Positions 19,333 through 61,356 of a stretch of 64,000 nt of DNA are shown in pieces. The position numbers and the translations under genes were made by a program. Positions within the stretch are counted from its first letter, which is position 1; every line of letters starts with the position of its first letter. The DNA is taken from the IMG/VR virus record IMGVR_UViG_3300031133_000383, positions 186,635 through 250,634 of that record, one strand, 5' to 3'. Under the pieces are notes generated by a model. The model was not told where the DNA came from, made no database searches, and worked only from the letters and a program-made list of their open reading frames with translations. This DNA is from a virus (Duplodnaviria > Heunggongvirae > Uroviricota > Caudoviricetes).

Positions 19333-19348
19333 AATTAGGAATATAATC

Positions 19349-21279: not shown

Positions 21280-21293
21280 TGTGAGGATCTTTA

Positions 21294-23364: not shown

Positions 23365-23411
23365 TTTATTTCTCCTAGATAATTGATTATATTTTATTAA
23401 AATTAAGGCAT

Positions 23412-23437
23412 AAAAAAACCCAGCATTTAGCTGGGTT
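23412..23437 (-). terminator. Attenuator terminator of the thrS leader
   Basis: Minus-strand RNA AACCCAGC-UAAAU-GCUGGGUU followed by U-run (7 consecutive U in total), 47 nt upstream of the thrS ATG. Confidence 0.75.
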
Positions 23438-23459
23438 CTTGGTGTGCAGGTATCAATTA

Positions 23460-23534
23460 TTAACGACAATACCTCACCAGCCCAGCTTCGATCTGAGTTG
23501 TTGTGGTAGTTGTTGTATTCTTGACTATGTGCAT
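23460..23534 (-). CDS. thrS leader peptide MHIVKNTTTTTTTQIEAGLVRYCR (24 codons, 7 consecutive Thr codons)
   Basis: ATG 23534 lies 8 nt after AAGGA. Thr codons ACA ACA ACU ACC ACA ACA ACU map to 23516-23496. Tandem stops UAA UAA. The last codons form the left arm of the antiterminator. Confidence 0.75.
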   Translation of the reverse strand: MHIVKNTTTTTTTQIEAGLVRYCR

Positions 23535-28247: not shown

Positions 28248-28326
28248 CGGAGTGTAGGTTAGCCCGGCTTATACCGCCTGCTTTGGGAGCAGGATGTCGC
28301 AGGTTCGAATCCTGCCACTCCGACCA
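28248..28326 (+). tRNA. tRNA-Pro (anticodon UGG), CCA encoded
   Basis: Acceptor CGGAGTG/CACTCCG. Anticodon arm CCTGC-TTTGGGA-GCAGG. T-arm GCAGG-TTCGAAT-CCTGC. Ends in ACCA. The D-arm is atypical (3 bp, long loop). Confidence 0.8.
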
Positions 28327-28339
28327 ATTTAATAATAAT

Positions 28340-28417
28340 TGACAGGTAGCTCAGTGGGGAGAGCGGCTCCAAATTTTCGGGAGACGGTCGGGGGTTCAAA
28401 TCCTTCCTTGTCAACCA
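28340..28417 (+). tRNA. tRNA with atypical 9-nt anticodon loop (AAAUUUUCG); isotype undetermined (Lys-UUU or Glu-UUC reading possible)
   Basis: Acceptor TGACAGG/CTTGTCA. D-arm GCTC-AGTGGGGA-GAGC. T-arm GGGGG-TTCAAAT-CCTTC. ACCA encoded. The anticodon stem pairs only as CTCC/GGAG, which leaves 9 loop nucleotides. Confidence 0.6.
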
Positions 28418-28426
28418 TCTTTATAT

Positions 28427-28514
28427 GGAAAAGTGGCAGAGCGGTTGAATGCAACGGTCTTGAAAACCGTCGGGTGTAAAAGCCTCGTGAGTTCGAATCT
28501 CACCTTTTCCGCCA
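28427..28514 (+). tRNA. tRNA-Ser (anticodon UGA), long variable arm, CCA encoded
   Basis: Acceptor GGAAAAG/CTTTTCC. Anticodon arm ACGGT-CTTGAAA-ACCGT. Variable arm present. T-arm GTGAG-TTCGAAT-CTCAC. Ends in GCCA. Confidence 0.88.
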
Positions 28515-29395: not shown

Positions 29396-29839
29396 TTATG
29401 GATAAGATTGATAGATTCTTTGAGTTTGATAAACCCTAACAGCAGGGACTTGATAAACTGGCTGATACACAGGCTGGGCGTATACAGGTTGTGTATAAAC
29501 AGGTTGAGTGTATACGGGTTGTGTGTATACTGGCACTTGTTGATAAACAACAGGTGGTGCTGAATAATAGTATGCATTTCTACGTGCCATTTCAGCATCA
29601 TAGGCGGCTTGTTCTCTACGAGCGTCCTCATATCTCATTCTATCGTTATAGCCTCTATTGTAATAGTTATTGGATTGTGAACAACAGAAATATCCTACGG
29701 CACCAACTGTTAATGCAGCGGCAGCAGTATAGCCTAATACGCGGCCTACATCATGACCATGATGCCTGCCTCCGGCATTTGCCATACTCACTGTTGTAAG
29801 TGTTGTGATAAGTAGCATACTTGTTATTAGTTTTTTCAT
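29396..29839 (-). CDS. Exported or membrane protein with a Q-P-V-Y-T pentapeptide repeat tail
   Basis: Signal peptide MKKLITSMLLITTLTTVSMANA. Hydrophobic segment LGYTAAAALTVGAVGYF. C-terminal VPVYTQPVYTQPVYTQPVYAQPVYQPVYQ is encoded by 15-bp tandem repeats (about 29450-29530). Locally higher GC. Confidence 0.7.
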   Translation of the reverse strand: MKKLITSMLLITTLTTVSMANAGGRHHGHDVGRVLGYTAAAALTVGAVGYFCCSQSNNYYNRGYNDRMRYEDARREQAAYDAEMARRNAYYYSAPPVVYQQVPVYTQPVYTQPVYTQPVYAQPVYQPVYQVPAVRVYQTQRIYQSYP

Positions 29840-32562: not shown

Positions 32563-33303
32563 ATGCAGGACCTAATTTATAATATGTTAACCGCCATCAA
32601 TAAGAATCAACACTCTGAGAACCCTGTATCGATCCAACCTTTTTTCTTGAACATTCATAATTTAAGCCTTTTTAAAGTCGATCCTAGATGGTCTTTTAAT
32701 GATATATATAATAAAAATCATGACATCTATATAAACCATTTTAAAAGTCATTTTCATTATGCTTTTAATGGTTCTTCTAGTGAGATTCAGAAAGATCTTT
32801 TGAATTATTTATCATTTGATAATTCAATGATTAATCAAGTTGTAGATTATTTTGTCCAGACTTTTAAAAACAGTAATAAATGTCAAGATATAGAACTGGA
32901 TAATGATTTTCACTTTAAGGAATTTCAGATACTTCAAAATCATATTTCCGAAAAAATATATGGCTTTCATGATAATGCTGATTATTATGCTCGCAGAATA
33001 AAATTTGGAACTTACCTGAATAGTCATATTATTTTTCTTCAATATCTTTTTTTTGTCGAAAATGAAAATTTGAAAGTAAAAGCAAAAATTTGCTTTCCTA
33101 TTAGTGAAAACAATTGTTTTTCTGTGTTTATTTGTGAACCAAACGATATTAAATTAGCCTGTGAAATTATATTTGGTCATTTTTTAAATGATATGAGAAA
33201 ATTTTTATATGAAAAATATCCTCTGGAATGTGCTGACATTTTTGATGTTGACGATAATACTATAAAACTTTTTCTTGATCTCGTTAAAATGGATAATATT
33301 TAA
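32563..33303 (+). CDS. Hypothetical protein, C-terminal-tail paralog family
   Basis: AAAAGGA RBS. C-terminus is ...DDNTIKLFLDLVKMDNI. Confidence 0.7.
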   Translation: MQDLIYNMLTAINKNQHSENPVSIQPFFLNIHNLSLFKVDPRWSFNDIYNKNHDIYINHFKSHFHYAFNGSSSEIQKDLLNYLSFDNSMINQVVDYFVQTFKNSNKCQDIELDNDFHFKEFQILQNHISEKIYGFHDNADYYARRIKFGTYLNSHIIFLQYLFFVENENLKVKAKICFPISENNCFSVFICEPNDIKLACEIIFGHFLNDMRKFLYEKYPLECADIFDVDDNTIKLFLDLVKMDNI

Positions 33304-33312
33304 GGTGACCCT

Positions 33313-34008
33313 ATGTTGAATTTAGAAAGCTTTGAGCCTATAGTTAATAGGATAAGACAATCTAAAAACACTCATGGAATAGAATCACTGGTATTTGGTA
33401 ACATTTCTGTTAATTTATCGTATTTAAAATTGGAAGATAATCGTATCAACGTTAGAATTGAAAAATTCAAACTGGATTTTGTTCAGCAATTATATAAACA
33501 GTTTGGTATTGATTTAAAAGATATAAATAAAATTGTTGATCTTTATTATCAAAGATGTATGGAAGCCAATATCATTCATCAGTTAGCCTTTAAACCAATT
33601 TTTGATATTGCTTCATTTTTCACTGCCTACAATGGATTGAAAAGTCACTTTCCATTGAAAGATAGAAATGTTATCAGTTACGAAAGTCATCTTTTCAAAA
33701 AGGAATTGCTTACTAAAAAAATCCCAATGGTGTTGGTGGATTTTTATTTAGATTTTTTTTCAAATAGTCCTGTACCTTACATTTTGATTACTTTACCATT
33801 GGCAAGAGAAGAAAAATTTCAAGTTAGGCTAACTGCTTTTGGTAATATTGATGAAATTGATAGTGTTATCAAACATCATCTAAGGATTCGTATGAAATCC
33901 TTACTTAATGGAGCAACACGCAATTATATAAGTAAGCAAGAATTCAAAATAAGTGATTTTGATTCGATGTGTCGGCATATGCAATTACGTGATATGATTA
34001 ACTATTGA
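33313..34008 (+). CDS. Hypothetical protein, C-terminal-tail paralog family
   Basis: AAGGTGA RBS. C-terminus is ...DFDSMCRHMQLRDMINY. Confidence 0.7.
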   Translation: MLNLESFEPIVNRIRQSKNTHGIESLVFGNISVNLSYLKLEDNRINVRIEKFKLDFVQQLYKQFGIDLKDINKIVDLYYQRCMEANIIHQLAFKPIFDIASFFTAYNGLKSHFPLKDRNVISYESHLFKKELLTKKIPMVLVDFYLDFFSNSPVPYILITLPLAREEKFQVRLTAFGNIDEIDSVIKHHLRIRMKSLLNGATRNYISKQEFKISDFDSMCRHMQLRDMINY

Positions 34009-34032
34009 GATTATTAAGGAGACATAGATTAG

Positions 34033-34785
34033 ATGTATAATGTTATCAAACCAGATTTTTATGAATTTATGTCTTTTATGAATCAACATCTACCTTTGGC
34101 AAAACAAAAAGATACTCATATCTTTGGGTATACTAAATATTTTTTTGAAATTACAGATGGTTTTGAAGTAAAAGTAGATGCTTCCATTTTGAATCTCAAA
34201 TTGGATAATAATTTCGCTAAACTTGTCTACAATTATTTTAATTTTGATTTCAAAGAAGTTGTCTCCATCATAGAATCTTATCATAAACATTTTACTGATT
34301 ATGGTTTGATAGATAACAAAAATCTAAATGAAATCCTCAATAATTGTTTTTTGACAGAGGATGAACGTATATTTTTTAGTGATATTAATCTTTATTCATA
34401 CAATACACGATGTGTAACCTTTAATAATTTAATAGTTGAAGTTCAAGTAACACACGATGCTTGCAAAGAAATGAAAATAAGAACTGTTATTTATTTTCCT
34501 GTTATGGATATTTCCTATATCAGTGTGACTGTTGACAAGACTATTAGCCAACCACCTATTGTTAAAGTAAGCAAAGTATTAAAAAGTCAGTCAATCAAAA
34601 GAACTCGAAATGCTCATTCTATTATTTCTAATTATTCATCTATAGATACTTATATGGAAAATATAGCGTTTTCAAGAGCAAAAAATATTATCAATCTGCG
34701 ATTGGGAATAAATAAACGAATAATAAAAAAAGATCCATTGGTTGTTCAAGATTATTTCAAATTATGTGAAATGATCAATATTTAA
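34033..34785 (+). CDS. Hypothetical protein, C-terminal-tail paralog family
   Basis: AAGGAG RBS. C-terminus is ...DPLVVQDYFKLCEMINI. Confidence 0.7.
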   Translation: MYNVIKPDFYEFMSFMNQHLPLAKQKDTHIFGYTKYFFEITDGFEVKVDASILNLKLDNNFAKLVYNYFNFDFKEVVSIIESYHKHFTDYGLIDNKNLNEILNNCFLTEDERIFFSDINLYSYNTRCVTFNNLIVEVQVTHDACKEMKIRTVIYFPVMDISYISVTVDKTISQPPIVKVSKVLKSQSIKRTRNAHSIISNYSSIDTYMENIAFSRAKNIINLRLGINKRIIKKDPLVVQDYFKLCEMINI

Positions 34786-35918: not shown

Positions 35919-36047
35919 CTGTAACAACGTTTACTTTTCTTTATAATTTTATTATTTAAATAATTATTTCGAAATTAATGGTAAACGTTTTGACATTTTG
36001 TTTGTTGTTGGTATTATAATATTAATATAATAACAATAATGATATAT

Positions 36048-37322
36048 ATGAAAAAGTTTAAATTTTTACCATTGATATTGATTATACATACAGTAAGTTA
36101 TGCTGACTACACTGTTATCTATCCACTTACAAATGCCTCTATAACTATATCACAAAAACCGCCTAGTTATACTGATTGGGTTTCTGTCGGCAGCCCCTAT
36201 AATTGTGCATCCGCAAGTCCTATGGAAAATACAATTAATGAAGGTATTTCATATACCAAAAATTTTACTAATTGTGACCAAAACCAAGAAAGAAAAAAGA
36301 CGATAGGGTCAGTTGTCACTAATGAACAGCGTACCGTTTCTGGTATCAATTATCAAACTCAAAGTGTAGGTACAAAAAAATATATCCCAACCTATACTGA
36401 TTGGGTAAATGTGGATAATGCTTATAACTGTGCTTCTGCGACTCCTATGGAAAACACTGTCAATGAAGGCGTTGCTTATACAAAAACATTTAGTGATTGC
36501 AGTCAAAATCAAGAAAGAACAAAGACACTAAACTCCGTGGTTACCATAGAACAACGTACTGTTTCTGGCATCACTTATCAATCTCAAAGTGTAGGTACAA
36601 AAAAATCTGTTCCTACCTATACTGATTGGACCAACGTTGGTGGAGCTTATAATTGTAATCAAAATCCTAAAGAAGACACTATTGATGAAGGAGTGAGTTA
36701 CACAAAAACTTTTAGTGAATGTAGTCAAGATCAGGAAAGAACAAAAACATTAGATTCCACAGTTTCTGTAGAAAAACGCACTATTCCAGCACCTAGTTAT
36801 CAAACCCAAAGTGTTGGAACAAAAGTAGCTGTTGCAACTTATACAGAATGGGCAAAATCAGGAACTCCATACAATTGCAAAAATATTGGACCTATGGAAG
36901 ATACATTTAATGAAGGAACAGTGTTTACAAAAAATTACAATGATTGCAGTCAGGATTACACTCGAACTAAGACATATAAAGGTGTCAACACAACTGAGAG
37001 TCAAACGTTACAGGGATTTAATTATTCTGTTCAAAGCGTAGGTACACGATCAGTAACAGAATGTGCTCCTTATGCGACTAACAATAATTATCGTTGGATT
37101 GACGTTGCCAAACAACAGCTTGGTACACCTAATTATAAATATGAATTATGGTGGAATGGCAAAGCATTGGCTTTCTTAACAGATAAACCTGTTACCACTG
37201 CAGCGGATAAAACTTTTACCACAGGTGGTTATGTGTATAGTCGTGGAGAATATAAAGAAAGTACAGTAAGAAATAGCGATTATAAATACTTCTATTATCA
37301 AGTGTGTAGAAAACCTGTCTAA
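36048..37322 (+). CDS. Secreted Cys-repeat protein, 4 repeats plus conserved C-terminal domain (tandem paralog 1 of 4)
   Basis: Signal peptide MKKFKFLPLILIIHTVSYA|DY. Four ~74-aa repeats of YT[DE]W..G..YNC....P.E.T..EG..YTK.F..CSQ.QERTKT. Start chosen by promoter-to-ATG spacing homology with the paralogs; ATG 36039 is an alternative. Confidence 0.75.
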   Translation: MKKFKFLPLILIIHTVSYADYTVIYPLTNASITISQKPPSYTDWVSVGSPYNCASASPMENTINEGISYTKNFTNCDQNQERKKTIGSVVTNEQRTVSGINYQTQSVGTKKYIPTYTDWVNVDNAYNCASATPMENTVNEGVAYTKTFSDCSQNQERTKTLNSVVTIEQRTVSGITYQSQSVGTKKSVPTYTDWTNVGGAYNCNQNPKEDTIDEGVSYTKTFSECSQDQERTKTLDSTVSVEKRTIPAPSYQTQSVGTKVAVATYTEWAKSGTPYNCKNIGPMEDTFNEGTVFTKNYNDCSQDYTRTKTYKGVNTTESQTLQGFNYSVQSVGTRSVTECAPYATNNNYRWIDVAKQQLGTPNYKYELWWNGKALAFLTDKPVTTAADKTFTTGGYVYSRGEYKESTVRNSDYKYFYYQVCRKPV

Positions 37323-37325
37323 CTT

Positions 37326-37358
37326 AAAAAACACTCTTTTTCGAAAGGGTGTTTTTTT
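37326..37358 (+). terminator. Intrinsic terminator after paralog 1
   Basis: ACACTCTTT-TTCG-AAAGGGTGT followed by a T-run. Confidence 0.75.
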
Positions 37359-37439
37359 ATAAACGTCTATTATTCAATAAAAATTTTGACATTATAATTA
37401 TTTTTGATATTATAATGTTAATACAACAATAAATATATT

Positions 37440-38273
37440 ATGACACATTTCAAGCTTTTACCTCTTTTGCTTTTTGTACAAACCATTAGTTATGCTGACT
37501 ACACTGTTATTTATCCATTAGCCGATTCTTCAATTTCAATAAAGCATAAAATTGAACCATCATTGCCGACCTATACAGAATGGGCATCCGTAGGCGAACC
37601 CTATAATTGTACGTATTCAACACCAAAAGAGGATACAATTGAAGAAGATACCGTATATACGAAAACTTTTAGTAATTGTACTCAAAAACAATCAAGAACA
37701 AAAACACTAGATTCGAATGTTACTACAGAGGAACGTACTATTTCTGGCGTACAATACCAAGCTCAAAGTATAGGTACAAAATTGGCTGTCGCTACTTACA
37801 CAGAATGGGCTATATCTGGTAAACCTTATGATTGTAAATCAGCTAGCCCTATGGAAGATGCCTTTACGGAAGGAACTGTCTTCACAAAACACTATACTGA
37901 TTGTAGCCAGAATTTAACTAGGATTAAAACCTACAAAGGTGTACAAACAACTGAAAGTAAAGTGGCGACCGGTTATGGATATGATGCTGAAAGCGTTGGA
38001 ACACGATCTGTGACTGAATGTATGACTCGATCTACTGATTATTATTGGATCGATGCAGCTAAACAACCGCTTGGATCACCCAACTATAAATATAATATAA
38101 AATGGAACAAGTCAACTTTGGCCAGTTATACATCAAAAGTCAATAACAACCCAGCAGATACAAGTTTTACCTCAGACGGTTATATTTATAGTCGTGGAAC
38201 CTACAGATCAACAACTTTACGATTTGAGGATTATAAATACTTTTATTATGACATATGCAGAAAACCTATTTAA
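37440..38273 (+). CDS. Secreted Cys-repeat protein, 2 repeats plus C-terminal domain (tandem paralog 2)
   Basis: Own TTGACA / TATAAT promoter at about 37386-37420. Signal peptide MTHFKLLPLLLFVQTISYA|DY. C-terminus is ...YKYFYYDICRKPI. Confidence 0.75.
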   Translation: MTHFKLLPLLLFVQTISYADYTVIYPLADSSISIKHKIEPSLPTYTEWASVGEPYNCTYSTPKEDTIEEDTVYTKTFSNCTQKQSRTKTLDSNVTTEERTISGVQYQAQSIGTKLAVATYTEWAISGKPYDCKSASPMEDAFTEGTVFTKHYTDCSQNLTRIKTYKGVQTTESKVATGYGYDAESVGTRSVTECMTRSTDYYWIDAAKQPLGSPNYKYNIKWNKSTLASYTSKVNNNPADTSFTSDGYIYSRGTYRSTTLRFEDYKYFYYDICRKPI

Positions 38274-38398
38274 CTTATAATAAAAAGCACATTGTGGGAT
38301 ATGCTTTTTTATTAATTATTATTTCTATTATTCAATAATTTATTTTGACATCATATTAATTTTTGATATTATAATATTAATACAATAATAAATATATT

Positions 38399-39232
38399 AT
38401 GACACATTTCAAGCTTTTACCTCTTTTGCTTTTTGTACAAACCATTAGTTATGCTGACTACACTGTTATTTATCCATTAACCGATTCTTCAATTTTAATA
38501 AAGAATAAAATTGTACCATCAGTGCCTACCTACACAGAATGGGCATCCGTAGGCGAACCTTATAATTGTGCATCATCAAATCCACAAGAATATAATGTGG
38601 ATGAAGGTGTAACCTATACTAAGACTTTTAATGATTGCATACAAAAACAAGAAAGAACGAAAACATTAGACAAAGAGATTACCACTGAATCTCGTACTAT
38701 TTCTATTTCGCAATATAAAGTTCAAAGTATTGGAACAAAGGTAGCTATACCTAGTTATACCGAATGGACTAATTCTGGTAGTGCTTATAACTGTCAATCC
38801 GTTAGCCCTATGGAAGATACTATTTCAAAAGGAAAAGAATATACAAAAAATTATACCAACTGCAGTATTAATCAAACTAGAACAAAAACACTTAATAATG
38901 TTAAAAATACTGAGACACGAGTTGCTGATGGGTATTCATACTCTATTCAAAGTGTTGGAACAAGAAATGATGAAGAATGTTTAAAATTTTCAAATTCTAG
39001 TCGTTGGGTAGATTATGCAAAAACACCACTTACTGCACCTAATTACAAATATCAAGTAGTATGGAATGGTAATGTATATGCTTCTTTTTCAAATTTACCA
39101 GAAAAAACCAATGTAGACATGAGTTTTACTTCAGGAATCTATGTATACACTCGTGGAACCTATCAATATTCGCAAAAAGTTGATAAGGATTATCAATATT
39201 TTTATTATGAATTATGTAGAAAGCCTATTTAA
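38399..39232 (+). CDS. Secreted Cys-repeat protein (tandem paralog 3)
   Basis: The first 60 nt of the CDS and the promoter are nearly identical to paralog 2; the remainder is diverged. C-terminus is ...YQYFYYELCRKPI. Confidence 0.75.
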   Translation: MTHFKLLPLLLFVQTISYADYTVIYPLTDSSILIKNKIVPSVPTYTEWASVGEPYNCASSNPQEYNVDEGVTYTKTFNDCIQKQERTKTLDKEITTESRTISISQYKVQSIGTKVAIPSYTEWTNSGSAYNCQSVSPMEDTISKGKEYTKNYTNCSINQTRTKTLNNVKNTETRVADGYSYSIQSVGTRNDEECLKFSNSSRWVDYAKTPLTAPNYKYQVVWNGNVYASFSNLPEKTNVDMSFTSGIYVYTRGTYQYSQKVDKDYQYFYYELCRKPI

Positions 39233-39340
39233 TTTTTATCAATAAATAATAATAAATGTTAAGTATTATATTAAATATTTTGATATTGTAGAACTTGGTG
39301 GTATTATAATAATAGAACAATAATTATATATTTAACCTCT

Positions 39341-40198
39341 ATGAATTTTTTTAAATTACTACCTTTGATTTTTGCAATACAATCAATCAGCTATGCTGAT
39401 TATACAGTCATTTATCCTTTGGATAGTTATCTTCTTAGTATAAAAAATAAAGTTGTAACCAATCCTGATGACGGCTCTGAACAATCTGTCTATACAGAAT
39501 GGTCATCCAATACAGATCCATACGATTGTGCAAAAATTTCGCCACTTTCAGAAACTATTGACGAAGGGGTATCCTTTACTAAAACATTTTCCAACTGTCT
39601 GCAAGACCAAACACGAACAAAAACTTTAAATTCTAAAATATCTATTGAGCATCGGACTGTTCAGGGTGTAGGTTATACAACTCAAAGTATAGGAACAAAG
39701 AAAGCCGTGGCTACTTATACAGAGTGGGTCAGATCAGGTGTACCTTATAAATGTGAGTTTATTGGGCCGATGGAAGATACTGTTGTGGAAGGATCTGCAT
39801 ATACCAAGACTTATAAAAATTGTAGTGCGGATTTTATCAGAACTAAAACACTCAGTGGTGTTGAAACAACTGAAAGTAAGGTCGTCACTGGTTATGAATA
39901 TTCTGTTCAAAGTATTGGAACTCTATCAGGAACAGAATGCTTGGTTTATAACGATACCACTAGTCAGAGTCGTTGGATTGATGCTGCTAAAACAGAGATG
40001 TCGGCTCCCAATTATAAATATGAGCTAACATGGAAAGGAAAATATATAGCAAACTTTACATCATCTACTGTCAATGTGGTTGATAACAGTTTTACAAAGG
40101 ATGGTTATATTTATAGTCGTGGAAAGTTTTTTTCTCGCTATGACCGTAATTTTGGCTATTATTATTTTGCCTATCAAGTGTGTAGAAAACCTGTTTGA
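39341..40198 (+). CDS. Secreted Cys-repeat protein (tandem paralog 4)
   Basis: Signal peptide MNFFKLLPLIFAIQSISYA|DY. Two repeats. C-terminus is ...YYYFAYQVCRKPV. Confidence 0.75.
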   Translation: MNFFKLLPLIFAIQSISYADYTVIYPLDSYLLSIKNKVVTNPDDGSEQSVYTEWSSNTDPYDCAKISPLSETIDEGVSFTKTFSNCLQDQTRTKTLNSKISIEHRTVQGVGYTTQSIGTKKAVATYTEWVRSGVPYKCEFIGPMEDTVVEGSAYTKTYKNCSADFIRTKTLSGVETTESKVVTGYEYSVQSIGTLSGTECLVYNDTTSQSRWIDAAKTEMSAPNYKYELTWKGKYIANFTSSTVNVVDNSFTKDGYIYSRGKFFSRYDRNFGYYYFAYQVCRKPV

Positions 40199-40280
40199 GT
40201 CAACTATAAAATTGTTGACATTTAAAAAAAGCTTTGTTATATTCAATTCTTAAAATTAATAAACAAAAGAGGAATACACC

Positions 40281-40436
40281 ATGGCTAAGATAACAGTTTA
40301 TACCAAGAGCGAACGTAAAGAACGTGATGTTGAGTTAGCATGGAGACAGAGAGAAGCTGCTTTCAATCCAAAAATCTCGAAAGAAAAAGCTTGGGAACGA
40401 TTTGAACAATTACGTGAAAAAGCTCTTGGCTATTAA
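40281..40436 (+). CDS. Small basic hypothetical protein (51 aa), below the ORF-track size cut-off
   Basis: TTGACA, 17-nt spacer, TATATT promoter (about 40214-40242). AGAGGA RBS. ORF MAKITVYTKSERKERDVELAWRQREAAFNPKISKEKAWERFEQLREKALGY. Terminator AAGCAAC-TTTCAT-GTTGCTT at 40451-40470. Confidence 0.55.
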   Translation: MAKITVYTKSERKERDVELAWRQREAAFNPKISKEKAWERFEQLREKALGY

Positions 40437-40495
40437 CCTTACTATAATTAAAAAGCAACTTTCATGTTGCTTTTCTTCATTTGGGGCACTGATAT

Positions 40496-41062
40496 ATGCA
40501 TGATATTTCAACACTCAAAAATCCTTCATTACTCTTTGCTGGTTTACTCAATGTGTATCGAGACATTGGTTTGGCTGATTTGGATGTTGCTGATGAAGAA
40601 ATTATTCAGCAAAATATATTGGTTATACAAGAATTGGTAAAATCTCCACACAATAGTTCTATTCCTTTTATCTTGACAAACTCTACTGTTTCTTTGTTGT
40701 CAAAACAAAACAGTGTTCGTCTAACAGGAAATAATTCATCGTTATTATTTAAAATCAAAACCATCCTTTCCACTCAATCTTTCTATATGTCATTGGACAA
40801 AGATAATGAACAAAAAATAAAGTTAATAAAATTTCATAAAAATAATATTCATGATATTGCTTCATATGAATATGTGTATATTACCTTAGACGAATTTCTG
40901 GTTCTTCTGAAAGACCTATTGCTGAATGAGCTTTTCACTATTATCAACAACTCATTTAAGCAAACCAATACTATGGACTTTTTTAGTTTTGAAGATTTTA
41001 TAGCATTACCAGCCTCTACTCGACGCCAGTATATTAACTTGTATCATATGAATACTATTTGA
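40496..41062 (+). CDS. Hypothetical protein, C-terminal-tail paralog family
   Basis: 188 aa. C-terminus is ...LPASTRRQYINLYHMNTI. Confidence 0.7.
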   Translation: MHDISTLKNPSLLFAGLLNVYRDIGLADLDVADEEIIQQNILVIQELVKSPHNSSIPFILTNSTVSLLSKQNSVRLTGNNSSLLFKIKTILSTQSFYMSLDKDNEQKIKLIKFHKNNIHDIASYEYVYITLDEFLVLLKDLLLNELFTIINNSFKQTNTMDFFSFEDFIALPASTRRQYINLYHMNTI

Positions 41063-41110
41063 ATTTATCCTCAATTTATGAGATAATCGGTACAATTCAG
41101 AGGATTTATC

Positions 41111-41701
41111 ATGCAGGATTTAAAATTATTAGATTATACAATCGTAACAGATTTTCTAACAAAAGCATTTGATTTGGGTGTTGAGTTATGTGCTTTTGAA
41201 GACCATAAATTTTCAGTCAATGCAGTTATTGAACAAATTATCTTGAATGGGTTTACACAATACACAGCAAGCAATCAAAGTCGTTTTCAACGGTTAACTT
41301 ACCGTAAAGCGTATCGTAAAAAATCAAGTAGCGGTTTGCTGGCTAATACATCCGTGGTTAATCATAAATTCTTTACTCCTGAGTTTTTTGAAGGTCAGCC
41401 TCTTTTTCTACATTTATCTTGGCCAGTGCATTTACATTTTCGTAAAGATATTTATTTTGATTTAAAAAATCAGGAAATTTATGAAGATGTTAAGAACATA
41501 AGAAAAGAAGTTGTCAGTTATTTTAAAAGTGATATTGATACAATTTTAAATGAATGTTCAGAGCGTCATTATAGTGGTTTGCATATATCGTTTACTAATG
41601 CAATTGAAGATTTTTCGCTTAAACGTAAAGATATGATGAGTATGCCAATCGATGATATTAATCGCTACATGACACTGGCTGATATGATAACAACTGTTTG
41701 A
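41111..41701 (+). CDS. Hypothetical protein, C-terminal-tail paralog family
   Basis: AGAGGA RBS. C-terminus is ...MPIDDINRYMTLADMITTV. Confidence 0.7.
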   Translation: MQDLKLLDYTIVTDFLTKAFDLGVELCAFEDHKFSVNAVIEQIILNGFTQYTASNQSRFQRLTYRKAYRKKSSSGLLANTSVVNHKFFTPEFFEGQPLFLHLSWPVHLHFRKDIYFDLKNQEIYEDVKNIRKEVVSYFKSDIDTILNECSERHYSGLHISFTNAIEDFSLKRKDMMSMPIDDINRYMTLADMITTV

Positions 41702-41713
41702 GGTTGGGCATTT

Positions 41714-42538
41714 ATGAATAATAAATTTTTATCCGTATTCAAGTCTTATTACTCTGCCAAACTTGAGCAATATGGTTTTTACACAAACAACATTGTTGAA
41801 AAAAATTATACATCTAATCTTGGCGAAGTCCTACTTCTTCAAATTGAAAATGTTAACTCTGACCTATTGTGTGTTGAATTTATTTCAAATCAGTATTCTA
41901 AATATAAAAATTCGTATCGTATTTTTTTTATTTTTCAAGATAGCACGCTTAGTCCTGATGATAAGAATATAAGGGTCAACCATTATTCAACCGCCATTTT
42001 TGGTTTTGACTTTGATAACATACATCAATTGCTGCTGTCTTATTTTCGGGCAGGTCTGGAAAAGAAAATTTTCGTTTGCACAGATCCTTTAATATTAAAC
42101 AATATACCCAGTTCTTTTATTGTTGATCATAGCGATTCTACATCATATTTAGCATCAAAACATAATATAATTTTAAAAGGATTAGAGTATAATCCTTTAT
42201 TAAGAGGTATTATTAAAAATAACAAACCTACTGTTAGCTTAAAGATTGTTTTCAATTTCGATAATGGCTTTGGTCAAGCAACAGTAGCAACCTTCAAATA
42301 CATTAAAAAACATAATTATAATATTATTTCAGCCAATGATATCGACAAAAAAGAAACTGCAAAAATTATTCATTTTAATAATGAATTTACACGGTTGAGT
42401 TTTTTGCAAGCAGAATGTGAAATGGTGATACAACAACAACTTGATGATTTATTAAACAATAATGTAGTTGATTTAACCATGATTTCACAAATAGATTTTG
42501 ATAATATTGTCTTAACAAAAAGAATGGCGGATTATTGA
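41714..42538 (+). CDS. Hypothetical protein, C-terminal-tail paralog family
   Basis: GAGG RBS. C-terminus is ...IDFDNIVLTKRMADY. Confidence 0.7.
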   Translation: MNNKFLSVFKSYYSAKLEQYGFYTNNIVEKNYTSNLGEVLLLQIENVNSDLLCVEFISNQYSKYKNSYRIFFIFQDSTLSPDDKNIRVNHYSTAIFGFDFDNIHQLLLSYFRAGLEKKIFVCTDPLILNNIPSSFIVDHSDSTSYLASKHNIILKGLEYNPLLRGIIKNNKPTVSLKIVFNFDNGFGQATVATFKYIKKHNYNIISANDIDKKETAKIIHFNNEFTRLSFLQAECEMVIQQQLDDLLNNNVVDLTMISQIDFDNIVLTKRMADY

Positions 42539-42540
42539 TC

Positions 42541-43287
42541 ATGACTATTATAGAATCATATCCTTTTATTAATCAGCAAATTATTTCTTTTTTTAAAGAG
42601 CAGTTTAATTTGAAAGTACACACTGAGCTAAAGGTTTCTCTCAGTACGCAGATTTTTGTATTTGACTCGTTTAATAAAAAAACAATATTTAATATCTACT
42701 GTTCTCAAACGAAATTAGGAAAATTGCTTTATACGTTTTACATATTGGATAGAGAATCAAGTATTTATTTAACGACATTCACACAATTTTATATGCTAAG
42801 TACATCAAAAGAAATGAATGCTTATTTTGACATAATAAAGCAAGTAGGTAACTCATTAGGTTTTCCTCTTGATTTATCAGTGAGATCCTTTGAAGAATTG
42901 AATTCAACAATTAAACCTAAGATTTATAATAATTCTTTAATGGTATTATGCGATCAACAAGTTGGTTATGACAAAAAAATGAAATACAATTACAATATAT
43001 ATTCCAGTTTTTCTTTTGAATTCAACACTGATCATATTGATGTTATTAGAATTCTTTACTATGATGCACCACATGGTAAGAATTTTGCACTTTGTTTACA
43101 TTCTGATGGTACACTTTTCGACAATGACTTGATTGTATTCGAAGAAAATATTCGAGGTTTTTTCCGTGAAGAAATAATTCGACGTTTAGTGAATGTATTG
43201 TATTATGATATTAAAGATTTACGTGATTTCTCGGACGCTGAGTTGGCAATTCACCTGCCTTTGATTGAAATAATTGATTTTTCATGA
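42541..43287 (+). CDS. Hypothetical protein, C-terminal-tail paralog family (Ile variant of the tail)
   Basis: ATG 42541 lies just after the upstream stop. C-terminus is ...FSDAELAIHLPLIEIIDFS. Confidence 0.65.
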   Translation: MTIIESYPFINQQIISFFKEQFNLKVHTELKVSLSTQIFVFDSFNKKTIFNIYCSQTKLGKLLYTFYILDRESSIYLTTFTQFYMLSTSKEMNAYFDIIKQVGNSLGFPLDLSVRSFEELNSTIKPKIYNNSLMVLCDQQVGYDKKMKYNYNIYSSFSFEFNTDHIDVIRILYYDAPHGKNFALCLHSDGTLFDNDLIVFEENIRGFFREEIIRRLVNVLYYDIKDLRDFSDAELAIHLPLIEIIDFS

Positions 43288-43331
43288 TTTTTTCTATATA
43301 CTTATAAAGTTTTGTACAGGGAAAAAATAAA

Positions 43332-44057
43332 ATGAGTGAACTCACCGATATTCCAAAATTTATAGGGATTTTCTTTGACAAGTATAACAATGGCAAAATT
43401 GGTATACAATTAAAAAAAGAACACTATAATAACGTTGTTTGTGTTGAAACTAATAAAGGAAAACCTATCTTAAAACTATCCGAATATGTTACTCGTTCTC
43501 CATATCCTTGTTTTTATGTTTCTTGTCACTATGTAAAAGATCAGCATTTTATTACAAGATTAATAAGAGAATACAGTATTGAAGATAAAGAAATGTTTCT
43601 TTTTATGATTGATACCATCAAAACAGCATTAGTTAAGCTAGGTCTAGCCACTGATGTAAAGATAAATCCAAAGATATTTACAGCTAGATTAGATTTTAAC
43701 AGATACAGTAATGGATATGTCGTCAAGGATATTGAATGTTTTTCAATTATTGATAATAATTCAACAACTATTATTTATCAAAATTTTAATTTTTCTATTT
43801 TTGAAGACAAGGTTTATTTAATTCGAACATTTCATTTCAACTATTTAATGCAAGAGTATGTTTTTGATGTGTTTAGTCACTTTGTTGACCGTGAGCAATC
43901 ATTCAATACCATCAAGCAAAATATTTATAGCAACTTTCGACAAAAGATGATTGAACATATTTCTCAAATAATGAAAATACCAAAAGAAGAATTTGCAGAT
44001 TTTTCAGACGAACATTTAGCTGATTCGTATAAGCTTTGTAACATGTATAGTTATTGA
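43332..44057 (+). CDS. Hypothetical protein, C-terminal-tail paralog family
   Basis: 241 aa. C-terminus is ...FSDEHLADSYKLCNMYSY. Confidence 0.7.
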   Translation: MSELTDIPKFIGIFFDKYNNGKIGIQLKKEHYNNVVCVETNKGKPILKLSEYVTRSPYPCFYVSCHYVKDQHFITRLIREYSIEDKEMFLFMIDTIKTALVKLGLATDVKINPKIFTARLDFNRYSNGYVVKDIECFSIIDNNSTTIIYQNFNFSIFEDKVYLIRTFHFNYLMQEYVFDVFSHFVDREQSFNTIKQNIYSNFRQKMIEHISQIMKIPKEEFADFSDEHLADSYKLCNMYSY

Positions 44058-44096
44058 TTTATTGTCTTTAATGCTGTATGATTAGCAAATATTTGA

Positions 44097-46200
<2,104 letters not shown>

Positions 46201-46262
46201 TATTTACAATGTTATGTGTTATCATTATTTCTTTTTATTGAAATATAAAAGGTCAATGAATT

Positions 46263-47039
46263 ATGGCAAATACACAAGAGAAAGATTTCTTAATGCTTAT
46301 CAAAGCTTTGTCTGCCCATACTGGTGAACGGTATCAGCATCACAATCAAGGATCTTCTTTGTTGATCAAAAGTAATAAAGAAGATATTTCATTTGTTAAA
46401 TTTGGTTATGACAGAGTGTTGAGAGCGTTCAATTCAATTCAATTTACCGATGCAACGCCAAACAATATAAAAGAAATATTTATTGTTCCCACCGAACTTA
46501 AAATTATTCAATCCATCGTTGACGGTTTTTTCAATCACCCACTTGTAAAAAGTGTTTTTATTAATCCTCTTATCGCATCTATCAATACTCCTATGGTTTC
46601 TTTTAATAACATAGGGATACCTGCACATAGTCGGCTAGCTCTGAAAAAGCAATTTTCATACCGTAACGCATTGAATGAGTTTACATTAGAAAAACACATT
46701 ACAGCAACTGCTGCACTAGATATTGTTTTGGAAGTGAAATTGAAATTCAATATTTCAAAAATTGGCTGTTTCGAGTTTTTATATAACCCTATTGATAAAC
46801 AAATTAAATTGATTTCAAATATTGTCTACATTGACAGTAGACCTCAATATATATATTGTGATAGACTTCCAATGAGTGAAGAATGCTTAAAATCAAAAAT
46901 GATCGATTGGTTAAATAAAATTTCCGAACCTGTATTTATACATTTATTGTATGCACATCGTTTGAATATAACAGATGTTAGTTTTAACAAACAAAACATA
47001 CAAGAAAGTTTTTTAATGTTGGAGATAGTAATTGACTGA
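46263..47039 (+). CDS. Hypothetical protein, C-terminal-tail paralog family (Ile variant)
   Basis: AAAAGG RBS. C-terminus is ...NIQESFLMLEIVID. Confidence 0.6.
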   Translation: MANTQEKDFLMLIKALSAHTGERYQHHNQGSSLLIKSNKEDISFVKFGYDRVLRAFNSIQFTDATPNNIKEIFIVPTELKIIQSIVDGFFNHPLVKSVFINPLIASINTPMVSFNNIGIPAHSRLALKKQFSYRNALNEFTLEKHITATAALDIVLEVKLKFNISKIGCFEFLYNPIDKQIKLISNIVYIDSRPQYIYCDRLPMSEECLKSKMIDWLNKISEPVFIHLLYAHRLNITDVSFNKQNIQESFLMLEIVID

Positions 47040-47868
47040 TAATACTGTGTTGAACAACTTAAAGGAATTTTTTATAGCTTATTTAAAAACTAATCATCAC
47101 CTTGATGTTGTTAAAACAGCTATTAAACATAAGGTGAATAATGGTCGTTCTGATGTGATTAAATTTATCATTAAGGATTTGACTATCAGTCCGCACAATA
47201 GATATGTATTGGTTTATGTAGATCGCTATAATAAAGGTTTTATTGATATATCGACGAACATAGATAAAATTTTTTTGATCACAATGTATAATGATTTCTT
47301 GTCACCTTATCTCTATAAGGAGATAGATGTCTTCAAAAAAACATTACAATTTATTTCAGATAAATTTATATTGTTTGATTCTATGGACTATGATATTGGC
47401 GAAGAGTATGGACATATTAAACATGCGACTTCAAAAGAATTTAGTGAGCAATATTTTAATATGTCTAGTTTATTGATTACCAAACTTCCTATCAATACAG
47501 ATGTATATCCCAAATGGAAAAATTGTTATATCACCAGTCAACTACAATTTATTTATAACAATGATAAATTAGTGGCCTTTCCTGTTATTTCACTCCACTT
47601 AGGCAATATCTATCATGCTCAGAAATTAAAAAACAATTCAATTGTCGCTGTGTCTTCTAATGAAGAAATCATATCGATTGAATTAAGCTTACGCAAGAAT
47701 TTTTCTAGTCATGTCTCAAAATTCGTTAGTATTTTTGAAAATTTGTTATACAATGATTTCTATAAAGCTCTAGGCCAATTTTTCAACATCAGTCTTGAAG
47801 ATATTAAACAAAGCACTGCCCAAGATCTAGAAGCCTATGCAACTGTATTACGTATAAAATATACATGA
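47032..47868 (+). CDS. Hypothetical protein, C-terminal-tail paralog family (Ile variant)
   Basis: TTG start 7 nt after GGAG; overlaps the upstream gene by 8 nt. C-terminus is ...STAQDLEAYATVLRIKYT. Confidence 0.6.
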   Translation: MTDNTVLNNLKEFFIAYLKTNHHLDVVKTAIKHKVNNGRSDVIKFIIKDLTISPHNRYVLVYVDRYNKGFIDISTNIDKIFLITMYNDFLSPYLYKEIDVFKKTLQFISDKFILFDSMDYDIGEEYGHIKHATSKEFSEQYFNMSSLLITKLPINTDVYPKWKNCYITSQLQFIYNNDKLVAFPVISLHLGNIYHAQKLKNNSIVAVSSNEEIISIELSLRKNFSSHVSKFVSIFENLLYNDFYKALGQFFNISLEDIKQSTAQDLEAYATVLRIKYT

Positions 47869-47878
47869 GGATTTATTG

Positions 47879-48757
47879 ATGTCAGACTCTATCAAACGTT
47901 ATTTTCCATTAATAAAAATGGTTAACTCCAAAATAAATATGTATTATCCTAATAATCTTACAACTGTATTACGCAATAGTTCGTTAAATGATTTCGAAAT
48001 TATTATAAAAACTGATAGTTTTCATTCTTCAAAGACGGATTCTATCATTTTTGAGAAAAATGATAAATCTTCTCGTATCAATAGTATTTTATTAGAAAAA
48101 ATAAGATTTTACTTTAGAGAATACGATGGTTTTAATCTGCTGACAATGACAGCTTCGACCAATAGAAAATCACCTATTATAAAAGATATTTACGATGAAT
48201 TATTTTCTGGCGTTGAATTTCCATCTTCTCGTTTTATTGATATATTAGATAGGTATGAAGAAACAACTGCAAAATTTGATTATTTTTCAGGCTTTAAAAA
48301 GCGATTTATTCCACAATCAATTGATGATATGTTCGTAAAAAAGACGGATGGCAAACAAACAAAAGATTTAAAGGTTGGACAAGCTCATTATTCTCAAATG
48401 GGTAAATCAGAAAACATGCGTAAATCTAGCATGAATTCTAGTTCTTCCTACTCTCCAATTAAGGCAGATTTAAAAATTGGATTTACTGATAAAGATAATT
48501 TTATTCCAATTGTTTTATTTACATTGCCTATTCTGTCATCCAATAAATATAAGATGCCTGTTCCCATTCTTTCAAACAACTTTGAGAATTTTTTGGAGCA
48601 ATCTTTTGAAAAGTTCGAAGCAGCCTTCAAGAAGTGTATTATTAATATTATTGCCAATAAAGAAAATCTCAAACTTAAAGAAAAAAAATTACTGTTTAAT
48701 CTTTCTGATGAAGAGCTTTATATGAGATATAAAATTGTTGAAATGATCAATATATGA
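47879..48757 (+). CDS. Hypothetical protein, C-terminal-tail paralog family
   Basis: ATG lies 8 nt after GAGGA. C-terminus is ...LSDEELYMRYKIVEMINI. Confidence 0.7.
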   Translation: MSDSIKRYFPLIKMVNSKINMYYPNNLTTVLRNSSLNDFEIIIKTDSFHSSKTDSIIFEKNDKSSRINSILLEKIRFYFREYDGFNLLTMTASTNRKSPIIKDIYDELFSGVEFPSSRFIDILDRYEETTAKFDYFSGFKKRFIPQSIDDMFVKKTDGKQTKDLKVGQAHYSQMGKSENMRKSSMNSSSSYSPIKADLKIGFTDKDNFIPIVLFTLPILSSNKYKMPVPILSNNFENFLEQSFEKFEAAFKKCIINIIANKENLKLKEKKLLFNLSDEELYMRYKIVEMINI

Positions 48758-49533
48758 AGATTAAAGATTATTTTTTAAACACCTTTAATCACTATACTGT
48801 GCATTTTGATAGTTTGAATAATTTTTTATTTGTTCGTTTGTATGATGGTGTGAAATTTATAGCTAAATTTAAAATAAAAGGCAATTCTATCATAGGGATT
48901 TATTTACATCCAGAATATGAAAAAGACATTGATAGAGTTTTTCGTTTTACTTATGATTTAACTATCGAAAAAAAGCTTTGTATAGCTGTTAATCTTTTTC
49001 TCAACAATAAAGTTATGGCTGCTTTTTTTAAGTCTGTTGACAGACGTTTCCGGCAAATTCAAGATGCCAATATTTATGATAATTTAAGACAATATGATAT
49101 GGATACTTCAATGTACCTTGAAACGTATCCTCGATTTGAACTTCAATACAGAACATGTGGAAAAATTTATTACGCTCAATTCTTTATATTTGATTCAAAC
49201 AATTATCCACATTCTATTTTTGCTATTAGTTTTTTGTTGCCAAAATATACAGTGCATATTTTGTATTCAGTAGAATTAAATACGTTTATAAGTGTTCAAG
49301 GCTTATTTAAAGATTTACCAATTCAGTTTCATGAAAAAACCTTTGAACATATTTTCGAAAGTGCTAAACCAATTAAAGATCTCAGCACTTATATAAATGA
49401 TTATCATAGTTATGACATTATGTTTACTTTTGTCAATATGATAACAAATGATAGATCTTTAACTGAACACATGTTGCCTTCCATCGATTCATTGGATAAT
49501 GCCATTGATCTATTAAATATGATGTATATTTGA
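48754..49533 (+). CDS. Hypothetical protein, C-terminal-tail paralog family
   Basis: ATGA start/stop overlap with the upstream gene. C-terminus is ...IDSLDNAIDLLNMMYI. Confidence 0.7.
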   Translation: MKIKDYFLNTFNHYTVHFDSLNNFLFVRLYDGVKFIAKFKIKGNSIIGIYLHPEYEKDIDRVFRFTYDLTIEKKLCIAVNLFLNNKVMAAFFKSVDRRFRQIQDANIYDNLRQYDMDTSMYLETYPRFELQYRTCGKIYYAQFFIFDSNNYPHSIFAISFLLPKYTVHILYSVELNTFISVQGLFKDLPIQFHEKTFEHIFESAKPIKDLSTYINDYHSYDIMFTFVNMITNDRSLTEHMLPSIDSLDNAIDLLNMMYI

Positions 49534-49696
49534 GGCAGTTACTACTATTCATATTACATATTTGATTAAAACTATAATTTATTCAATGACAGTTAATACC
49601 AAATGAATAAAACATTGACAAAATTTAATATTATCGCTATATTTATTAATCGAAATCATGCTCTATACCTATGTAACACAAGAAAAGGAGAAACCT

Positions 49697-60846: not shown

Positions 60847-61356
60847 ATGTTTGAATCATTCAAAAAATTTTTTGGAAAGAAAAAAGAAAATAAGGCACAA
60901 TCTACCCGACAATCATCAGTCATCAGCCATAGTCGAAGAAATTCTCAAACTCGTCAGGATGAACTGAGTATTATTAATCCTCTGCATCCACTGAACCCGC
61001 TAAATCCAATTTATGATGATGTGACTCCATCTGAAAAGATTGTGCCGTCGCGTCATGTATCAGATGATGTGATTAATCGAGAATCGATTTCAGCCAAGCC
61101 TTCTGATTCGGCCTATAAATCACGTTTTGATAGTAATGTTGATGATGATGTTCGTCGCAATATAGGTCGAGTACATTCTCAGCCGCCTGTGTATGTAGAT
61201 ACGTATAAAGATACATCCAGTCATCATCGTTCTGAATCCAGTCATTCTAGTTCACGACATGACAGCCATCACTATGGCGGTTCTGATAGTGGTTCTAGCA
61301 GCAGTTATGATAGCGGATCTAGTAGTAGCGGAGACAGTGGTGGTGGTGGTGACTGA
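60847..61356 (+). CDS. Low-complexity Ser/His/Asp/Gly-rich protein (probably disordered)
   Basis: AGAGGAA RBS and TGCTATAAT promoter. C-terminus is SSHHRSESSHSSSRHDSHHYGGSDSGSSSSYDSGSSSSGDSGGGGD. Confidence 0.6.
   Translation: MFESFKKFFGKKKENKAQSTRQSSVISHSRRNSQTRQDELSIINPLHPLNPLNPIYDDVTPSEKIVPSRHVSDDVINRESISAKPSDSAYKSRFDSNVDDDVRRNIGRVHSQPPVYVDTYKDTSSHHRSESSHSSSRHDSHHYGGSDSGSSSSYDSGSSSSGDSGGGGD

Follow-up and report, generated by a model that had tools for sequence, protein, structure and literature searches.

A viral seryl-tRNA synthetase gene packed among fast-evolving tail-family genes: probable inheritance of gene order within one sub-lineage of very large, phage-like genomes

The stretch of viral DNA considered here (termed the window: 64,000 nucleotides, positions 186,635 to 250,634 of IMG/VR record IMGVR_UViG_3300031133_000383) encodes a complete seryl-tRNA synthetase (SerRS), the gene for which, serS, lies in the middle of ten tightly packed, co-oriented genes whose products end in a similar C-terminal module and which are termed here the tail family. 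Comparison with six related genomes suggests that this placement is probably a matter of phage gene packing, inherited within one sub-lineage, without any special function that joins the tail family to translation.

serS and its packed neighborhood

An initial annotation of this region had described a full-length serS amid ten head-to-tail genes, and that description holds: all eleven open reading frames (ORFs), whose coordinates come from a mechanical ORF list, lie on the plus strand, and an independent gene caller, run on the source contig, returned the same genes. The encoded SerRS scores 505 bits against TIGR00414 (cut-off 301.65), its residues 11-414 spanning positions 7-418 of the 418-position model, and it contains the Seryl_tRNA_N domain (PF02403, residues 10-107, E 1e-8) and the tRNA-synt_2b domain (PF00587, residues 220-397, E 1.6e-41). 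In the feature list that follows, L033, L035 and L040 denote related genomes, and the leave-one-out test is the profile test of C-termini described under the tail family.

40496-41062 (+): tail-family gene 1, 188 aa, ending ...LYHMNTI; no orthologue found in the relatives
41111-41701 (+): tail-family gene 2, 196 aa; its orthologue is the first array gene of L033, L035 and L040 (28-35% identity)
41714-42538 (+): tail-family gene 3, 274 aa; tail recognized by eye only, leave-one-out test failed; orthologues in L033 and L035 28-30% identical
42535-43287 (+): tail-family gene 4, 250 aa if started at TTG 42535, 248 aa if started at ATG 42541; body homologous to that of gene 5
43332-44057 (+): tail-family gene 5, 241 aa; AlphaFold model confident only over residues ~190-241, a helix-turn-helix hairpin
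44106-45389 (+): serS, complete bacterial-type seryl-tRNA synthetase, 427 aa (TIGR00414, Pfam)
45379-46200 (+): tail-family gene 6, 273 aa; orthologues lie right after serS in L033 and L035 and second after serS in L040
46263-47039 (+): tail-family gene 7, 258 aa; weak tail ...LMLEIVID, leave-one-out test failed
47032-47868 (+): tail-family gene 8, 278 aa; TTG start, 8-nucleotide (nt) overlap with gene 7
47876-48757 (+): tail-family gene 9, 293 aa if started at TTG 47876, 292 aa if started at ATG 47879; body homologous to that of gene 6
48754-49533 (+): tail-family gene 10, 259 aa; ATGA overlap with gene 9
28427-28514 (+): tRNA-Ser(UGA), long-arm, last of a cluster of Pro, Lys and Ser tRNAs (Rfam)

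As had been claimed, the gene that follows serS begins within it: the ATG of gene 6, at 45379, lies 11 nt inside the serS 3' end, which also contains a Shine-Dalgarno-like GAAG/GGAG ahead of this start. The further overlaps reported at 47032/47039 (8 nt) and at 48754/48757 (ATGA) are likewise present, and the one reported at 42538/42541 depends on the start codon chosen: TTG 42535 gives a TTGA overlap (-4 nt), and ATG 42541, which the gene caller favors, leaves a spacer of +2 nt. Two other junctions have gaps of 12 and 7 nt and four have gaps of 44-62 nt--among them the 48-nt gap that separates serS from the family gene upstream--for a full spacer range of -11 to +62 nt. Overlaps occur at 4 of the 10 junctions of the serS block and at 5 of 49 same-strand junctions in the window as a whole; both these ATGA-type and longer overlaps and the 11-nt overlap at serS resemble those of translationally coupled phage and bacterial operons, among which they are nothing unusual.

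The tRNA-Ser(UGA) that the initial annotation had placed in the window is present and is the likely substrate of the encoded SerRS. That annotation had gone on to propose a link between the family and translation, to be looked for in serine codon use and in the UCA codon above all. Neither carries a signal: serine accounts for 8.6% of the ten array genes, 7.7% of the 25 family members recognized in the window and 7.4% of its other ORFs, and UCA for 0.29, 0.30 and 0.26 of the serine codons in the same three sets.

Conservation of the arrangement among relatives

The context of serS was read for six relatives (L033, L035, L040, L037, L038 and L039), across which, together with the window, SerRS is 60-87% identical. 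The clade to which these enzymes belong comprises metagenomic homologues at 59-77% identity, after which identity drops to ~55% (cellular Gammaproteobacteria).

The array is kept around serS, with collinear orthologues, in L033, L035 and L040, whose SerRS sequences are 72-76% identical to that of the window and to each other (87% between L033 and L035). The layout common to these three consists of a 51-aa ORF, five to seven tail-family genes, serS, five to eleven tail-family genes, an S49 peptidase gene and a NUDIX hydrolase gene, the last two being followed in L033 by the gene for tyrosyl-tRNA synthetase (TyrRS). In terms of the window's genes the collinear order is 41111, 41714 and 43332, then serS, then 45379, 46263, 47032, 47876 and 48754. 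Copy number differs among the genomes, four of which have from 10 to 16 family copies around serS. The description of the array genes as fast-evolving orphans is borne out: family orthologues are only 18-39% identical, whereas SerRS reaches 76%, the S49 peptidase 65% and other neighbors 45-56%. The spacing between serS and the next gene is -11, 0, 0 and +1 nt in the four lineages that have the array; in L040, the gene directly after serS is a different family member, and the orthologue of 45379 comes second.

The more distant relatives are arranged otherwise. In L037 (SerRS identity 64-68%), serS is located between a gene like that at 14552 of the window and a ligase gene; the nearest family genes lie beyond intervening non-family ORFs, a promoter-like site (TTGAAT-17-TATAAT, with TG) precedes serS, and an intrinsic terminator lies at its stop codon. 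In L038 and L039 (60-65%), serS occurs among unrelated genes on mixed strands, which encode SmpB, an M23 peptidase and an MscS-like channel. All three are true relatives of the window lineage, as is indicated by their ligase (73% identical), polynucleotide kinase-phosphatase (PNKP)-like protein (60%) and MYG1-like protein (51%); the last two proteins, at these identities, and an ADP-ribosylglycohydrolase (50%) are encoded by the L038 and L039 loci. Whether serS is always inside the array had been raised as a check on the initial annotation, and the outcome is divided: it is inside in L033, L035 and L040, and elsewhere in L037, L038 and L039. Beyond this clade, 21 SerRS-bearing viral contigs from IMG/VR (45-57% identity) have no flanking genes in common with the window and no tail-family genes.

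Expression signals

The predicted expression signals of the array, together with the small ORF that heads it, are as follows.

40215-40243 (+): sigma70-type promoter-like site TTGACA-17-TATATT, 11/12, with TG, before the 51-aa ORF
40281-40436 (+): conserved 51-aa basic ORF heading the array (window, L033, L035, L040)
40451-40474 (+): nine-pair hairpin with a weak T tract, terminator-like, between the 51-aa ORF and gene 1
44054-44082 (+): promoter-like site TTGATT-17-TATGAT, 9/12, upstream of serS; the TGA stop of gene 5 falls within its first hexamer
46197-46225 (+): promoter-like site TTGATA-17-TATCAT, 10/12, with TG, in the 62-nt gap before gene 7
49615-49643 (+): promoter-like site TTGACA-17-TATATT, 11/12, closing the block on its downstream side; the non-family gene that comes next starts 15 nt further on

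The array is thus bounded by the two TTGACA-17-TATATT sites (40215-40243 and 49615-49643) and by the hairpin at 40451-40474. Weaker promoter-like sites occur within it, in the gaps before 41111, 43332, serS and 46263, and these, as read from the sequence, argue for several transcription start points. A search of the array for internal terminators found no credible one, only weak terminator-like matches inside coding sequence. A TGA stop preceded by T opens the -35 hexamer of a TTGAnn-17-TAnnnT site in three of the five gaps of at least 44 nt; the idea that stop codons regularly double as part of a promoter was set aside, since this holds for only three of the five and since the shuffle probability is ~0.1-0.15 for each, which makes it only suggestive.

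The 5' region of serS itself is kept more widely than the array. A Shine-Dalgarno region, ATATTTGAGGA, precedes serS in the window, L033, L035, L040, L037 and L038, whatever the neighboring gene, and is partly recognizable in L039; a promoter-like site also lies 23-30 nt before the serS ATG in the window, in L040 (TTGAAA-17-TATTAT, 10/12, as read from the sequence) and in L037. Because of these 5' signals of its own, serS looks like a cassette. For the same reason, and given the 48-nt gap, it does not appear to be coupled to the upstream half of the array. Downstream, because the next gene abuts or overlaps serS in all four array lineages, read-through and termination-reinitiation are plausible. 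The co-expression proposed in the initial annotation is accordingly plausible for the downstream genes--which are abutting and co-oriented, with no credible terminator found between--and not for the upstream ones.

Several observations concern the upstream boundary. The 51-aa ORF (4382-4537 in L033, 4349-4504 in L035 and 3862-4017 in L040) lies just 5' of the first tail-family gene in four lineages; in the window, the promoter-like site upstream of it is the strongest of the region, and the hairpin lies downstream. Adjoining the array, at 36039-40198, are four tandem paralogues (427, 277, 277 and 285 aa; 48-62% identical) with a signal-peptide-like N-terminus, ~75-aa internal repeats of the form YT[DE]W..PYNC...C.Q.Q.R.KT and a C-terminus ending in CRKP[VI]. 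Each has a sigma70-like site 22-34 nt upstream (three scoring 11/12 and one 10/12), and the block is missing at the syntenic place in L040.

Nature of the replicon

The source contig of the window is 322,998 bp long, with a GC content of ~30%, and an identical SerRS is encoded on a contig of 604,313 bp; both lengths exceed the 200 kb by which huge (jumbo) phages are defined. Counting ORFs of 120 aa or more, of which the window has 66, Pfam matches were obtained for only ~15, so that ~80% are orphans. Three synthetases--SerRS, threonyl-tRNA synthetase (ThrRS) and TyrRS--are encoded inside 35 kb, and further genes encode a NAD-dependent DNA ligase, a PNKP-like HAD phosphatase, a NUDIX hydrolase, an S49 peptidase and three tRNAs. 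Several of these products point toward huge phages. The Xanthomonas jumbo phages XacN1 and Xoo-sp13 encode hypothetical proteins with 45% identity to a 778-aa protein of the window (4883-7219, minus strand), which also matches phrog_33734 (E 2e-153) and, in part, the NCBIfam MXAN_6230/SCO0854 RING-domain family. The ThrRS (22204-23469, minus strand), which at only 421 aa covers positions 160-536 of TIGR00418 and lacks the N-terminal TGS and editing part, is nearest to copies in the huge-phage records LR756504 (636 kb) and Sinorhizobium phage Phosso (469 kb), where the gene is similarly short. Among 185,579 GTDB species representatives, no SerRS is more than 54% identical to that of the window, and the best matches are to Gamma- and Betaproteobacteria.

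Shine-Dalgarno motifs precede 47% of the window's starts, compared with 5-7% of control positions, and strong sigma70-like sites are enriched between genes (19 of 48 in the 15.6% of the sequence that is intergenic), 15-35 nt ahead of starts. Because of these two features, the host is taken to be a bacterium rather than a eukaryote, and a eukaryotic giant virus was rejected on the same grounds, together with the start/stop overlaps. A huge phage that infects a Gram-negative, likely proteobacterial host is the most probable source of the genome, and serS would therefore be a viral auxiliary gene. The initial annotation had regarded serS as a housekeeping-type gene; it appears instead to be a virus-encoded accessory synthetase, one of the three in the window.

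Other genes in the vicinity may be recorded here. Among the family arrays of the window lies an RNA-repair set consisting of the PNKP-like phosphatase (8077-9309), the BRCT-bearing NAD-dependent ligase (16513-18384) and the tRNA cluster (28248-28514); the relative L040 encodes, from 20487, an RNA ligase like T4 Rnl1. The window's flanks encode an Hsp70/DnaK-like protein (633 aa; L026, 5790-7691), an ADP-ribosylglycohydrolase (L026, 4086-4934) and a nucleoside deoxyribosyltransferase (L029, 11560-12117), and relatives encode SmpB, PTH2, an MscS-like channel and an MCP-signal (chemoreceptor-like) protein. Two low-complexity proteins, at 29396-29839 (minus strand) and 60847-61356 (plus strand), are also present in the window; one ends in PVYQ/PVYTQ repeats and the other is rich in Ser, Gly, Asp and His.

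Weighing of explanations

The reading favored here is that phage gene packing, inherited in one sub-lineage, accounts for the position of serS. The window would be an accessory region of a very large phage genome, probably transcribed by the host RNA polymerase, and serS a complete viral synthetase whose job would be to keep tRNA-Ser charged during infection, encoded beside the truncated ThrRS, TyrRS, the tRNAs for Pro, Lys and Ser, and the RNA-repair enzymes. As a self-contained cassette with its own Shine-Dalgarno sequence--and, except in the two most distant relatives, a promoter-like element as well--serS would in one sub-lineage have landed between two family members and then have stayed there, while the flanking arrays grew, shrank and diverged around it through tandem duplication and loss. 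Transcripts initiated at serS would probably run into the downstream family genes, and the gene that comes next would probably be translated by termination-reinitiation. Such co-expression downstream would be a consequence of the head-to-tail packing of phage genes. Of all this, the identities of the genes, their packing, the pattern of synteny, the rates of divergence and the lack of a serine-codon signal are direct observations; the phage nature of the genome, the promoters, co-transcription and the lack of any special function in the neighborhood are inferred.

Certain observations weigh against this reading. The ~84 kb read (the window plus its 10-kb flanks) showed no gene for a capsid, portal or terminase, the nearest things to virion genes there being one weak match to a portal-family PHROG (8e-7) and the S49 peptidase, and for this reason the assignment to a phage is indirect. 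Close relatives of the SerRS (~75% identical; the P0011 and P0135 contigs) are encoded on contigs of 1.86 Mb and 1.54 Mb, which exceed any described phage; these contigs could be concatemers, chimeras, integrated copies or true megabase-size genomes. (A more distant member of the clade, P0144, of the P0043 cluster at 62% identity, is on a contig of 662 kb.) The promoters were called by consensus matching in AT-rich DNA, and an 11-kb region gave 84 sites where 70 +/- 8 are expected. Finally, the zero-gap junction and the position of serS have been kept in four lineages even though flanking genes are just 18-39% identical, and selection for co-expression, instead of inertia, could be the cause.

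The megabase contigs also speak for a second explanation, namely that the sequence comes from an uncultured intracellular bacterium of low GC content, as its chromosome or an island therein; serS would then be a housekeeping gene and the tail a signal for the secretion of effectors. The bacterial type of the expression signals would fit this, as would the SmpB, MscS-like channel and chemoreceptor-like protein encoded by relatives; moreover, type I and type IV secretion substrates are known whose uncleaved signals lie at the C-terminus and have hydrophobic residues close to the end. The explanation is nonetheless improbable. The SerRS clade is found in no GTDB species genome (best match 54%), and the surroundings of serS read in the seven genomes have no ribosomal, RNA polymerase, envelope or central-metabolism gene. 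Genes of phage type are found instead--the phrog_33734/XacN1 homologue, PNKP, Rnl1, an R2K family member and the truncated ThrRS--and three synthetases cluster inside 35 kb. No secretion-system gene, nor any encapsulin gene, was seen in the loci read.

A third explanation is the functional link of the initial annotation: one or more tail-family proteins, notably the product of the gene abutting serS, would work with SerRS or with translation, and the junction would ensure that they are produced jointly. The strongest argument for this is the spacing at that junction, within -11 to +1 nt in four lineages, and it is favored as well by the retention of serS in the array down to 72% SerRS identity and by the proximity of the family to related functions, inasmuch as four of the window's five protein genes for translation or RNA repair, and the tRNA cluster also, adjoin a family gene. 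Such adjacency is, however, expected from abundance. Because about every second gene in a 49-kb stretch belongs to the family, family neighbors of serS are unremarkable, and the placement that had been called unusual is shared by the PNKP-like gene, which also lies between two members; by gene order, 15 of the 41 non-family ORFs, those for the ligase and ThrRS included, adjoin a member. Tight junctions, too, occur commonly all along the arrays. In L040 a different member of the family abuts serS, serS has no family neighbor in L037, L038 or L039 (and in L037 is ended by a terminator), the serine content and UCA use of the family are ordinary, and the family matches no known translation factor in Pfam, PHROGs or the PDB. 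A specific link between the family and translation thus finds no support in these comparisons and is considered quite improbable.

The tail family

The module that defines the family was recognized by eye on at least 25 of the 66 window ORFs, all on the plus strand between 384 and 49533, in arrays of one to five genes. Besides the ten genes around serS these are:

384-34785 (+): fifteen more tail-family genes, namely three at 384-3000, one each at 7370, 9358 and 12419, five at 18469-22163, one at 27489 and three at 32563-34785

These additional arrays are interspersed with the PNKP-like gene, the NAD-dependent ligase gene, the ThrRS gene and the tRNAs. The module comprises the C-terminal ~40-50 aa and consists of a helix, a loop like ...EDh..LS.EE... 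and a last helix ending in h-x-x-M-x-x-h-COOH (h, hydrophobic). Pairwise BLAST comparison of the ten array proteins gives nothing significant (best E = 0.033). In a leave-one-out profile test against 874 C-termini, on the other hand, eight of the ten rank first, the exceptions being 41714 and 46263; over all 25 members, 15 rank first and 19 rank among the top five. Methionine at position -4 occurs in 21 of the 66 window ORFs, compared with 6 of 584 ORFs from unrelated viral loci (Fisher p = 1e-17), and in 11 of 12, 12 of 14 and 18 of 19 array genes of relatives. With the tail trimmed, comparison of orthologue alignments by hhalign links the bodies of 45379 and 47876 (E 4e-11), those of 42535 and 43332 (E 2e-5) and, weakly or at the borderline, those of 41111 and 45379 (E 6e-4); no such homology was detected for 40496, 41714, 46263, 47032 or 48754. 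From sequence comparison, then, the ten array proteins have a C-terminal module in common and bodies that are only partly demonstrably homologous. The ten-gene array of the initial annotation accordingly stands as regards the common module, and the family extends well beyond the ten.

Could the ten instead be unrelated orphans with independently similar short, hydrophobic C-termini, the array being an artefact of pattern spotting? The lack of significant BLAST similarity, the mere three body-to-body links, the two failures in the leave-one-out test, and the fact that orthologue tails are no more conserved than bodies (26% versus 27.5% identity) could all be read in this way. The explanation is very unlikely, however, given the frequency of methionine at -4 in both the window and its relatives, the 15 first ranks among 25 members, a module whose ~40 aa show a conserved helix periodicity and include an LS-x-EE-like cap, and an AlphaFold prediction that is confident on the module once the family alignment is supplied. 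The members are, in addition, similar in length and composition, arranged in tandem and on the same strand, and the weak tail-trimmed links are found only between family members.

The AlphaFold model of gene 5, made with the family alignment, predicts a helix at residues 191-214, a turn and a helix at 226-240 (pLDDT 80-96), the rest being not confident; the single-sequence model has a pLDDT of 32. Because the model is confident only in the tail, the Foldseek comparison with the PDB (best E 0.25) is meaningless. The tail appears to be conserved as protein, because its synonymous codons vary (GAA ATG ATT AAT TAT, GAA ATG ATC AAT ATT and others); a DNA or RNA signal was rejected on that account, and an Rfam scan of the window returned three tRNAs only. 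The family is enriched in Phe (8%), Ile (10%) and Asn (8%) and contains 0.1-0.3% Trp, versus 1.0% in other ORFs. No signal peptide or membrane segment is visible by eye in its proteins, and a charge bias, such as might mark a DNA mimic or nucleic-acid binder, was rejected because the pI spans 4.4-9.2. As judged from the junction sequences, nine of the ten array genes stop at TGA, which ends 12 of 25 family genes and 9 of 41 other ORFs in the window.

Searches place the family in the present lineage only. Pfam and PHROGs gave sub-threshold noise, PDB profile searches gave no match, and tblastn against 50,697 phage records likewise gave none; neither a word-indexed search with one member nor a search with a 24-member profile retrieved anything beyond the proteins of the window itself. 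When 1.84 billion proteins were searched by profile, 13 matched--six window genes and seven new proteins, whose alignments run right to their own C-termini and among which are orthologues of 45379 and 47876--and the one new match that was traced (P0133) sits in the serS array of L040. On these sequence searches, the tail family seems to be confined to this lineage.

Comparison with known systems

Huge phages, as Al-Shayeb et al. are said to have described in 2020, carry aminoacyl-tRNA synthetase and tRNA genes. The present genome is like these in having a bacterial-type synthetase as an auxiliary gene, with tRNAs and RNA-repair enzymes, in a genome of more than 200 kb, and homologues of its SerRS and ThrRS are found both among deposited phage records and on huge IMG/VR contigs. 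It differs in that its SerRS clade was missing from IMG/VR (best match 57%) and from the phage collection (best 51%), in that at least seven related genomes have retained the enzyme, at 60-87% identity, through rearrangements, and in that some related contigs exceed 1 Mb. A search of the literature found no description of this lineage or of the tail family.

The synthetase and tRNA complement of jumbo phages is patchy rather than conserved (Iyer et al. 2021, PMC7824862). In Bacillus phage G, a lineage-specific expansion has given rise to ~35 copies of a zinc ribbon (PMC7824862), and such expansions in jumbo phages have precedents. The tail family resembles the zinc ribbons in that dozens of paralogues occur in arrays within one phage genome. 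It is unlike them in that the common element is a C-terminal hairpin at a fixed distance from the carboxyl end, and in that the bodies have diverged almost beyond recognition, with no match in Pfam, PHROGs or the PDB and none outside the lineage among 1.84 billion proteins.

Short terminal modules for docking or targeting are known from poxvirus ankyrin proteins (C-terminal PRANC/F-box-like), from encapsulin cargo-loading peptides and from the capsid-targeting sequences of phage T4. The likeness to these is by analogy only: many proteins, each with a diversified body, bear one short conserved terminal module. The tail module matches none of them in sequence or fold, and the T4 signal is N-terminal and cleaved, while encapsulin peptides are unstructured and rich in Gly and Ser.

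Significance

The claim that first drew attention to serS matters little: synthetases are already known among the accessory genes of huge phages, and the tests run here argue against a special link with the surrounding family. What is new is, first, a lineage of very large, phage-like genomes that encode SerRS, ThrRS, TyrRS, tRNAs and RNA-repair functions and that are absent from IMG/VR and GTDB as searched. Within it, serS provides a clear example of a synthetase gene that appears to move as a cassette with its own expression signals. Also new is a large, fast-evolving, lineage-restricted family that is recognizable only by its C-terminal helical module and that is a candidate for an arms-race or a docking family.

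Docking or targeting is the most interesting possibility, because the module lies at a fixed distance from the carboxyl end, is borne by many divergent proteins and is confidently modeled as helical. It is conceivable, albeit doubtful, that the hairpin with its h-x-x-M-x-x-h-COOH end serves as a common address tag by which many diversifying phage proteins dock onto a single hub; that hub may be the interior of the capsid or portal (for co-injection), a chaperone or protease (such as the neighboring S49 peptidase or the phage Hsp70), or a machine of the host. If this is true, the tail family would represent a new protein-sorting or docking system of giant phages that can be recognized from sequence, and its coupling to serS would tie the output of tagged proteins to the translation module of the phage.

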